Positions 20,713 to 21,164 of a stretch of DNA of 64,000 nt are shown here, piece after piece. The stretch is taken from IMG/VR virus record IMGVR_UViG_2703718861_000013; one strand, given 5' to 3'. A program made the position numbers and the translations under genes. The notes below the pieces were generated by a model. It did no database searches and had not been told where the DNA came from. It saw only the letters and a list, made by a program, of their open reading frames with translations. The stretch is from a virus. Lineage: Duplodnaviria > Heunggongvirae > Uroviricota > Caudoviricetes. How positions within the stretch are numbered: position 1 is the stretch's first letter; every line of letters starts with the position of its first letter.

Positions 20713-20735
20713 ACTTGATTATCACTATAGGGGAA
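20713..20735 (+). promoter_or_regulatory. T7-class single-subunit RNAP promoter-like motif A
   Basis: ttgattatCACTATAGGGGaacc; 11/13 match to the T7 core CACTATAGGGAGA; 35 nt upstream of the RBS of the 122-aa ORF. Confidence 0.5.
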
Positions 20736-20764
20736 CCAACTAATTCAACTACAGGAGATACTCT

Positions 20765-21133
20765 ATGGCACGACCAATCGCAACTCACGACAACACGTTC
20801 ACCAAAGCCTACTTGCAGCAGCACTGCGGGGACCTGCTGTCATTCGATGGTCAGGGCGACCTGAGTGGTTGGCTGGATGATGTCCTTACTGGTGCTGGTC
20901 GCCTGAACGAATCAATGGCAAGCAATACCAAGCCTGTCAGCCCATACTTGATTCTGACCCAACTACTAACGCACGACACATTAACTGTAAGCGCTGTACA
21001 GGAGTCCCTGAGCCGTAAGCGTGTTGCCTTGGGTGAACCTATGGTTTCAACTCGCTACGCTCGCTACGTCTATGCTACCGTCGTCAGCGCCAGTAAATCC
21101 GTCCAGTACCACGCCAGTAAAGCTGGTTCATGA
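20765..21133 (+). CDS. hypothetical protein (122 aa)
   Basis: ORF with AGGAG RBS directly downstream of promoter-like motif A. Confidence 0.5.
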   Translation: MARPIATHDNTFTKAYLQQHCGDLLSFDGQGDLSGWLDDVLTGAGRLNESMASNTKPVSPYLILTQLLTHDTLTVSAVQESLSRKRVALGEPMVSTRYARYVYATVVSASKSVQYHASKAGS

Positions 21134-21141
21134 TTACGGAC

Positions 21142-21164
21142 CCTAAACTATCACTATAGGGAGA
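21142..21164 (+). promoter_or_regulatory. T7-class single-subunit RNAP promoter-like motif B
   Basis: ctaaactaTCACTATAGGGAGACC; exact 13/13 match to CACTATAGGGAGA (consensus from memory), upstream region differs from T7. Confidence 0.55.

Follow-up and report, generated by a model that had tools for sequence, protein, structure and literature searches.

A 6,563-bp element integrated in the Escherichia coli chromosome carries Kayfunavirus-type promoters and is a probable satellite of virulent T7-like phages

Why would an element integrated in a bacterial chromosome carry promoters of the T7 class and no polymerase to read them? The question arises from a 64,000-nucleotide stretch of IMG/VR virus record IMGVR_UViG_2703718861_000013 (the window), which comparison with K-12 identifies as E. 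coli chromosome with a 6,563-bp insertion (the element) in ynfE, at about codon 468. A preliminary description had noticed two T7-like motifs in this insertion and had proposed that they answer to a T7-family RNA polymerase (RNAP) other than that of T7, supplied by an infecting phage. Our analysis indicates that the two motifs, P1 and P2, are almost certainly real promoters for the RNAP of K1F-like (Kayfunavirus) coliphages, and that the element is probably an integrative satellite of virulent T7-like phages, activated by the helper's polymerase, with P1 and P2 as functional Kayfunavirus RNAP promoters.

Direct reading of the sequence bore out the two motifs and the upstream sequence that they share. 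The sequence CACTATAGGGAGA at 21152-21164 is an exact copy of positions -7 to +6 of the T7 promoter, CACTATAGGGGAA at 20723-20735 agrees with it at 11 of 13 positions, and TAT directly precedes both cores. When either strand of the 64-kb window was searched, the 13-mer TATCACTATAGGG was found in exactly two copies, at 20720 and 21149, both on the gene strand and 429 bp apart. Both sites are intergenic and point in the direction of the genes, as had been described; they lie on the + strand like all genes of the element and have GGG at +1 (20730 and 21159).

20711-20735, + strand: P1, phage-RNAP promoter of a variant dialect, GGACTTGATTATCACTATAGGGGAA; +1 at G 20730; would drive orf122
21140-21164, + strand: P2, canonical Kayfunavirus-type promoter, ACCCTAAACTATCACTATAGGGAGA; +1 at G 21159; would drive the leader and the conserved operon

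The statement that both motifs stand upstream of open reading frames (ORFs) holds for P1, whose +1 lies 35 nt 5' of the orf122 ATG (20765), but not for P2, which has no ORF immediately 3' of it and is separated by a leader of ~635 nt from the KilA-N gene at 21794, the first gene of an operon.

A scan of IMG/VR for TATCACTATAGGGAGA returned 45 stretches, nearly all in contigs of 39-41 kb, and one group of these had flanks near-identical to those of P2. The contigs with P2-like flanks are Kayfunavirus (K1F-like) coliphages such as vB_EcoP_F, whose whole genome holds 10 co-oriented sites with the consensus (A/C)CT(A/T)AACTATCACTATAGG. P2 (CCTAAACTATCACTATAGG) matches this consensus at 19 of 19 positions, equals (A/C)CT(A/T)AACTATCACTATAGGGAGA over -17 to +6, and is identical at 25 of 25 positions to the promoter 5' of the vB_EcoP_F capsid gene. 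The earlier suggestion of a specificity region unlike that of T7 is upheld, since the region from -17 to -8 (CCTAAACTAT) is the consensus of Kayfunavirus promoters; with T7 promoters P2 shares the TATA at -4 to -1 and the GGGAGA start. The upstream half of P1 (ACTTGATTAT) is a variant that differs at -13 to -8. Its 18-mer TTGATTATCACTATAGGG is also present in a ~40-kb T7-like viral contig, and in E. coli TUM12357, as in 11 metagenome loci, the P1 variant stands directly 5' of a canonical K-type promoter, in tandem with it. Unlike the promoters of the phages, P1 and P2 stand on an integrative element of a bacterial chromosome that encodes no polymerase.

The likeness was quantified with a position weight matrix (PWM) made from the 10 promoters of vB_EcoP_F, and the chance expectation in 128 kb was taken from the exact score distribution. 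P2 scored 34.2 bits, inside the range of the phage's own promoters (32.4-37.1 bits), P1 scored 23.4 bits, and the best other site in the window reached 11.6 bits. The number of chance matches expected in 128 kb is 1.2e-7 at the score of P2 and 1e-3 at that of P1. The weaker third match, previously placed at 20462-20475, sits at 20459-20472 and is no promoter by the PWM (below 11.6 bits); it is the 3' edge of a hairpin block of 28-36 nt.

The family to which the element belongs is present in ~300 of 5,426 complete E. coli genomes (~5%; 313 by element DNA and 298 by the K-type promoter, which in these genomes is never on plasmids), in 60 metagenome loci, and in Shigella, Leclercia, Buttiauxella, Enterobacter and Citrobacter, whose elements have promoters at the same two positions. 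Size (6.3-6.6 kb) and gene order are alike across genera. Two insertion sites are used, ynfE and a tRNA-Gly adjoining actS/xdhA, and there are two types of integrase, 30% identical to each other. T7-class promoters stand 5' of the operon in every full-length genomic relative whose capsid protein is at least 44% identical, and 36 of the 37 metagenome loci with enough upstream DNA have 1-4 exact CACTATAGG cores on the gene strand, 1.9-2.9 kb 5' of the capsid gene. Loss of the motif from related copies, named beforehand as a sign of chance, was not seen: promoters are at the same positions in these 36 metagenomic relatives and in the full-length genomic relatives except the distant L085. In an alignment of P2 the TCACTATAGGG core is invariant, the upstream flanks are unrelated (exchanged cargo) and the downstream leader is conserved; numerous E. 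coli genomes have just the ~60-bp P2 block in common with the window. Among relatives of at least 70% identity, the ratio of nonsynonymous to synonymous substitution rates (dN/dS) of the capsid gene is 0.03-0.22, with dS up to ~1.1-1.2; for orf163 the ratio in close relatives is 0.07-0.34, and no core-gene copy compared contains a stop codon. The core genes are under purifying selection, and the promoters are conserved beyond neutral expectation, being invariant though synonymous sites are saturated.

Moreover, many relatives carry two promoters back to back, ~27 nt apart, at one or both positions: a T3-like TTA(T/A)ACCCTCACTATAGGGA (T3/GW1-type TTATACCCTCACTATAGGGA) followed by the K-type ACTAAACTATCACTATAGGG. 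The T3/GW1-type corresponds to the promoter consensus in another Kayfunavirus lineage (Cronobacter phage GW1, Citrobacter SH4/SH5 and Dev2); GW1 has 12 such sites. Other elements have a T7-like AATAAGCACTCACTATAGGGG, and a more distant relative (capsid protein 44% identical) has three further dialects in tandem at two positions, one of which recurs in a 39.6-kb viral contig. The relatives of the element thus stack dialects in tandem, whereas the two phage genomes examined (vB_EcoP_F and GW1) do not. Although vB_EcoP_F (L047) and GW1 (L082) are both Kayfunavirus, their promoters read ...CTAAACTATCACTATAGG and ...TTAAACCCTCACTATAGG, respectively, which implies that RNAP specificity has diverged within one genus; the elements often have both. 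Stacked promoters for different polymerase specificities are sensible only in an element that is transcribed by the polymerases of incoming phages, and tandem dialects would let a single satellite answer several helper lineages.

What the promoters would switch on can be seen from the gene content. In the comparison with K-12, window positions 15100-18709 and 25258-28000 abut with a 15-bp overlap, which is the duplicated core of the attachment (att) sites; ynfE, a putative selenate reductase gene, is split into 17679-18845 and 25211-26668, and its paralogue ynfF (15195-17621) is intact. The element holds eight to ten ORFs, all on one strand.

18695-18709, + strand: attL core (AGTTCCAGATGGACT), left boundary, a direct repeat defined by the K-12 ynfE comparison
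18771-20354, + strand: tyrosine integrase, ORF of 527 amino acids (aa) whose true start may lie further 3' (PF00589, 1.8e-13; phrog_1, 3.3e-42)
20765-21133, + strand: orf122, variable cargo gene between P1 and P2 (phrog_23123 of unknown function, 1.1e-8)
21165-21793, + strand: non-coding leader from P2, conserved in its first ~80 nt (alignment) and last ~130 nt (L051 and L083, direct reading)
21794-22552, + strand: KilA-N domain protein, first gene of the P2 operon (PF04383, 1.3e-9; phrog_129, 1.5e-17)
22554-22721, + strand: orf55, conserved core gene present in nearly all relatives (dN/dS 0.07-0.47)
22818-23309, + strand: orf163, putative scaffolding protein and core gene, directly 5' of the capsid gene, with a charged, helical-looking middle segment (dN/dS 0.07-0.39)
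23394-24380, + strand: orf331, HK97-fold major capsid protein by predicted structure
24386-24625, + strand: homologue of T7-like gp7.3 (virion and tail-assembly / host-range protein), 79 aa (phrog_1320, 1.8e-11)
24788-24820, + strand: stem-loop and T-run, terminator-like, after the capsid module (terminator scan; fold -16.2 kcal/mol, z -4.4)
24864-25019, + strand: orf51, small hydrophobic protein from the ORF list, conserved in ynfE-type relatives, no family match
25258-25272, + strand: attR core (AGTTCCAGATGAACT), from the K-12 comparison

The conserved core of the family consists of orf55, orf163 and the capsid gene, and the relatives of the integrase in RefSeq are annotated as site-specific integrases. 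Profile searches with orf331 against PDB sequences, Pfam and PHROGs gave no match. With a shallow alignment, AlphaFold2 reached a mean confidence (pLDDT) of 45; the HK97 fold was obtained once an exhaustive HMMER search had added remote homologues, and on this model orf331 is predicted to be an HK97-fold capsid protein. Comparison of its profile with T7-like gp10 gave an hhalign probability of 0.2%, with no sequence similarity. A scaffolding role for orf163 is plausible from its position next to the capsid gene; Pfam, PHROG and NCBIfam scans assigned it to no family, and it has no similarity to Kayfunavirus gp9. The counterparts of the KilA-N gene in relatives encode a Rha-family or other DNA-binding protein.

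The 79-aa protein is 40% identical to gp7.3 of vB_EcoP_F over its full length, with conserved termini (E 1e-14 pairwise). By tblastn, gp7.3 alone among the 48 vB_EcoP_F proteins finds a homologue in the window; in the opposite direction, tblastn of the 79-aa protein against phage genomes gave no match, probably from low-complexity filtering. Portal, terminase, tail and replication genes and an RNA polymerase had no matches in the element in the Pfam, PHROG and NCBIfam scans or in tblastn with the 48 proteins, and the large ORFs of the window have other Pfam identities. The window indeed encodes no single-subunit RNAP, as had been stated, and the polymerase must therefore come in trans. A megablast search of the element against 50,697 phage genomes gave no match. 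Among the features by which satellites are generally recognized, a recombinase of its own and defined att sites are present, and most genes for an autonomous virion and replication are missing. Of its products, the capsid protein, the scaffold-like protein and the gp7.3 homologue are the only structural ones.

In addition to promoters, the element shares with T7-like phages sequences from the ends of their genomes, together with a hairpin block.

25040-25200, + strand: block homologous to the helper right-end junction and the start of the terminal repeat (alignment with BHUENT8, Foetvirus P1723 and Kayfunavirus F)
18818-18842, + strand: terminal-repeat-end-like motif CTCTGGGTCTCCCTATCTGTATCAG (repeat-end motif CCCTATCTGTAT), matching BHUENT8 CTCCGAGTCCCTATCTGTATCGG
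20432-20467, + strand: hairpin block GGAGGGTGATAATAATCATAATCCCTCC(TGACTATA), common to Kayfunavirus genomes (RNA fold -15.9 kcal/mol, z -3.2)

The right-end block forms the last ~160 bp before attR and gave a database-wide blastn E of 5e-3. Its analogue of the cut site, ATCTAATACA, lies at ~25072 (TCTAATACA...) and is followed by CCCCATAGCCC and AAGTCCAGACC; in the alignment the phage reads ...GAGACCACATCTCACAG... and the element ...GAATGACCATCTAATACA.... A sister element from Citrobacter gave database-wide E values of 8e-6 to 4e-3, with matches within ~200 bp of phage genome ends, in or beside terminal repeats, one of which is annotated as a direct terminal repeat. The right-end motif recurs in the same place in relatives, the distant L085 among them. 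At the other side, the segment 18818-18842 stands just inside attL and holds the phage-RNAP class II pause/termination core ATCTGT, as does the right edge of a T7-like terminal repeat; the end of the T7 repeat itself we take to be CTCTGTGTCCCTATCTGTTACAG. A class II pause/termination signal of T7 RNAP is located at the concatemer junction (bioRxiv 10.1101/2021.01.11.426313). The motif CC[CT]TATCTGT is on the + strand, always co-oriented, in 34 of the 34 metagenome loci with enough upstream DNA, and the 16-nt sequence GTCTCCCTATCTGTAT is identical in ynfE-type and tRNA-Gly-type elements despite their integrases of 30% identity. In the tRNA-Gly-type elements (L058 2741-2756; L052, L053 and L055), GTCTCCCTATCTGTAT lies inside the integrase coding sequence, ~650 bp from att, where the repeat-end/pause motif appears to be a cis signal embedded in a coding region.

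In the excised form, the predicted arrangement is operon, cut site and repeat start, attP, repeat end and pause site, the same order as at the T7 concatemer junction 3' of the right-end promoter. By homology, a cis packaging signal matching that of the helper is likely to be present. The hairpin block is identical at 27 of 28 positions to vB_EcoP_F 6965-6992, where the right-end promoter and gene 19.5 flank it, and at up to 32 of 32 positions in other Kayfunavirus-type records. Hairpin or promoter blocks are matched by 196 phage records, and among the matches listed those to the hairpin lie ~0.2-0.6 kb from the record end. The sequence GACTATAGGCCC (window 20461-20472; L047 32621; L082 ~36017) is preceded by a genuine promoter in each of the two Kayfunavirus genomes (CACTATAGGGACTATAGGCCC) and by the hairpin in the element. 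Likewise, the stem-loop at 24788-24820 corresponds in position to T-phi, which follows gene 10 in T7, with a similar structure in Citrobacter L058, and orf51 has the position of helper gene 19.5 just before the genome end, which is a likeness of position and not homology.

Taken together, these features are best accommodated by a satellite lifestyle. In an uninfected cell the operon would be silent, as the E. coli RNAP would not use P1 or P2. Upon infection by a T7-like phage, to judge from the promoter match, the phage RNAP would fire P1, expressing the cargo gene, and P2, whose transcript would comprise the leader, the KilA-N regulator, orf55, the scaffold-like protein, the HK97-fold capsid protein and the gp7.3 homologue. 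Because the element does not have the genes, the polymerase, replication, portal, terminase and tail would all have to be supplied by the helper. Excision and circularization would then bring the genome-end signals into phage order 3' of the operon, and the homology of these ends suggests that the helper RNAP and terminase could handle the excised element as a concatemer junction. The satellite capsid protein, the putative scaffold and the gp7.3 homologue may build or remodel heads, and packaging could take either of two forms. A monomer of ~6.9 kb might enter a small capsid of satellite protein on a helper portal and tail, as 6.56 kb plus the repeat would fit a small (~T=3) head; alternatively, a ~6-mer might fill a helper head, 6 x 6,563 bp making 39.4 kb, close to the 39.3 kb of the helper genome.

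Beyond this single element, and with slightly more doubt than belief, one may picture an undescribed family of capsid-encoding mini-satellites (~6.3-6.6 kb) of virulent T7-like phages of Enterobacteriaceae. In such a family a promoter-array 'barcode' would set the helper range, and the helper RNAP would serve expression and probably also the priming of replication and the initiation of packaging. A terminal repeat split by att would become packageable after excision only, and the satellite's own ~T=3 head would be joined to the helper's portal and tail, making the family a bacterial analogue of the virophages.

Several observations weigh against a satellite. A search for free, circular or terminally redundant copies gave none, and the IMG/VR copies are all integrated. 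Thirteen metagenome contigs of 6.2-6.9 kb were considered as free elements and rejected: they have no terminal repeats, and those checked end in the ynfE or tRNA flank or in other chromosomal DNA and are assembly breaks. Infection by T7-like phages is fast and destroys host DNA, which makes timely excision a problem, and no excisionase or replication function was identified in the element. The distance from repeat start to repeat end after circularization would be ~330 bp here and ~885 bp in tRNA-type elements, as compared with ~180-210 bp in phages, a difference in spacing that sets the 'reconstituted terminal repeat' apart from a simple copy. The P1 score is under the range of genuine vB_EcoP_F promoters (23.4 versus 32.4-37.1 bits), and the scaffold assignment of orf163 is based on position. 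The distant relative L085 (4380-10400, ~5 kb; order int, 254 aa, 155 aa and a capsid protein 35% identical) lacks a promoter of the CACTATAGG type, although the right-end motif CCCCATAGCCC is there; its helper may use a different promoter class. Finally, several copies have IS3 or IS66 insertions or mutated cores (CACTAGTAGG, CACTGTTAGG and CACTATCGGG), and part of the population is therefore decaying. The copies concerned include L089 3700-3990, L083 3009-5321, and H3, H5, H7 and H21-H23. Separately, protein-identical contigs of ~6.4-7.3 kb, examined as possible free forms, proved to be chromosomal.

Three other explanations were weighed against the satellite reading. That P1 and P2 resemble the T7 consensus by chance, with no tie to any phage polymerase, has in our view a negligible probability. 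Short AT-rich motifs such as CTATAG do arise by chance, as the third motif exemplifies, but the chance expectations in 128 kb (1e-7 and 1e-3 for P2 and P1), the two exact copies of the 13-mer lying 429 bp apart on the gene strand, and the retention of the motifs across dozens of diverged relatives are hard to reconcile with it, and on the PWM statistics and the conservation we consider this explanation refuted. It is very improbable, too, that the element is the decaying remnant of an integrase-carrying temperate T7-like phage whose promoters, gp7.3 and ends are leftovers without current function. The promoters, the gp7.3 homologue, the hairpin block and the terminal-repeat-like sequence are all T7-like in origin, and the copies with insertion sequences or mutated promoters would suit decay. 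However, a remnant would not be expected to keep a uniform size of 6.3-6.6 kb and one gene order across genera, core-gene dN/dS of 0.03-0.34 among close relatives with no stop codons, and invariant promoters where neutral sites are saturated. In sequence the capsid protein is unlike T7-like gp10, 47 of the 48 helper genes left no trace, and the tandem gain of new promoter dialects is adaptation rather than decay. In the window, no homologues of T7-like (Studiervirinae) prophage genes for RNAP, DNA polymerase, primase-helicase, portal, gp10 or terminase were found.

The main rival is a phage-triggered defense island without transfer, in which the promoters sense infection and toxic or interfering products (the cargo, KilA-N, a decoy capsid protein and gp7.3) poison helper assembly and abort infection, the element never being packaged. 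P1 and P2 would restrict expression to infection in this case too, the P1-P2 slot is a variable cargo hotspot that recalls the defense hotspots known from other mobile elements, PADLOC gives a weak match for the KilA-N protein (PDC-S22, 5.9e-7), and packaged forms were not found in IMG/VR or among the metagenome contigs. Nevertheless, a defense island leaves unexplained the cut-site and terminal-repeat homology, the repeat-end motif, and their arrangement around att with unrelated integrases. An intact pair of scaffold-like and capsid genes under strong purifying selection exceeds what a decoy needs, and to have reached six genera and two att sites implies that horizontal transfer is efficient. 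Nor does interference with the helper preclude transfer as a satellite. We therefore regard a role in defense only as unlikely, though less so than the other two explanations, and retain a helper-activated satellite as the probable one.

The closest functional analogues appear to be virophages, cf-PICIs, PLE and PICMI, and T7 junction plasmids. T7 reportedly packages plasmids that carry a T7 promoter/origin and a concatemer junction into transducing particles, a finding attributed to Chung and Hinkle in 1990; such plasmids are packaged as roughly genome-length concatemers. They resemble the element in joining a phage-RNAP promoter and a concatemer-junction sequence on a small replicon without packaging proteins, whereas the element is natural and integrating, has its own capsid gene, and has its junction-like sequence interrupted by att. 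The cf-PICIs (e.g. EcCI2) likewise have their own capsid gene; however, they also have portal, terminase, protease and head-tail connectors, none of which is in the element, and they are ~10-15 kb in size, take only tails, and have temperate helpers. Classical PICIs and SaPIs have a master repressor divergent from int, a primase-replicase, and terS or capsid-redirection genes, and P4-like satellites have the alpha primase, sid, psu, delta and a cos site; the element has no matching families for either, and its genes are on one strand. In SaPIbov5, helper capsid size is redirected by Ccm, a capsid homologue that arose by divergence from the helper's own capsid protein; orf331, by contrast, has no detectable sequence relation to helper gp10 and is accompanied by a scaffold-like partner gene. 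PLE of Vibrio cholerae and PICMI of marine vibrios are also small integrated elements that answer a virulent helper (PICMI is ~6 kb), but generic library scans, which made no direct comparison with PLE or PICMI reference sequences, gave no protein family link to them. For PLE and PICMI, neither induction through helper-polymerase promoters nor mimicry of T7-like genome ends is reported in the literature searched.

Virophages such as Sputnik and mavirus have their own capsid gene and a helper promoter motif that leads to transcription by the helper machinery. Like them, the element would be a parasite with its own capsid gene and helper-type promoters; unlike it, they belong to a different virus realm and have a double-jelly-roll capsid, eukaryotic hosts and their own packaging ATPase. 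Hyperparasitism has been reviewed (PMC13359090). Neither a satellite of T7-like phages nor satellite induction via helper-polymerase promoters was found in the literature searched, the coverage of which is incomplete. We would place the element as a family within the phage satellites with a new induction logic; it fails the gene sets of PICIs, cf-PICIs and P4.

T7-like phages are the textbook strictly virulent phages and leading candidates for therapy. If the satellite reading is true, satellites can be induced directly by the helper RNA polymerase instead of by de-repression, a stack of promoter dialects can encode the helper range, and even 15-minute lytic cycles can be parasitized. It would also bear on gene transfer by virulent phages and, because ~5% of complete E. 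coli genomes have the family, on the outcome of phage therapy. Moreover, the promoters and their polymerases would offer natural orthogonal pairs for synthetic biology, and the element a minimal system of capsid, scaffold and portal for studies of capsid size determination.

The cargo gene orf122 has weak homologues in unrelated phages, which are uninformative, and it is swapped for other genes in sister elements that retain P2. The P1-P2 slot (window 20736-21139) is a cargo hotspot; sisters (L090-L095 and L164) have 155-166-aa hypothetical proteins or a DUF4145 protein there, and the relative L089 has an extra HNH endonuclease-like gene 5' of its promoters. By analogy, a cargo slot with retained flanking promoters resembles the defense hotspots of other satellites.

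The leader has no Rfam match, and a 100-aa ORF with a GTG start at 21253 within it has no family match. A hairpin just 3' of P2 (TCTGA-UGCG-UCAGA) was considered and set aside: it shows two apparently compensatory changes between lineages, but its fold energy is no better than that of shuffles. Sigma-70 and terminator scans likewise gave no enrichment over shuffles. The leader also contains a 44-nt direct repeat (21423-21466 and 21619-21662, 95% identical, 196 nt apart), each copy of which has a small AACCC/GGGTT stem followed by TTTGTTAAAAA; it is not in the Leclercia relative L051 and is possibly an origin, a terminator or a duplication.

Metagenome contigs of the family often break ~50 nt outside the att core, a pattern suggestive of populations in which some sites are occupied and others empty. 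Elsewhere in the window, 1756-10176 encodes a 2,806-aa polyvalent protein with LPD38, LPD5, LPD1 and MuF-C domains, in a prophage-like region left of ynfF that is unrelated to the element; such proteins are typical of the injected proteins of phages or conjugative elements. A lambdoid prophage lies on the opposite side of the ynf locus, at 32029-64000, with an integrase (32029-33324), a gpA-type terminase (51731-53833), a ClpP-capsid fusion (55303-57522) and a tape measure protein (60669-63764). IMG/VR joins the element with prophage DNA in a single 72.9-kb 'viral' contig.

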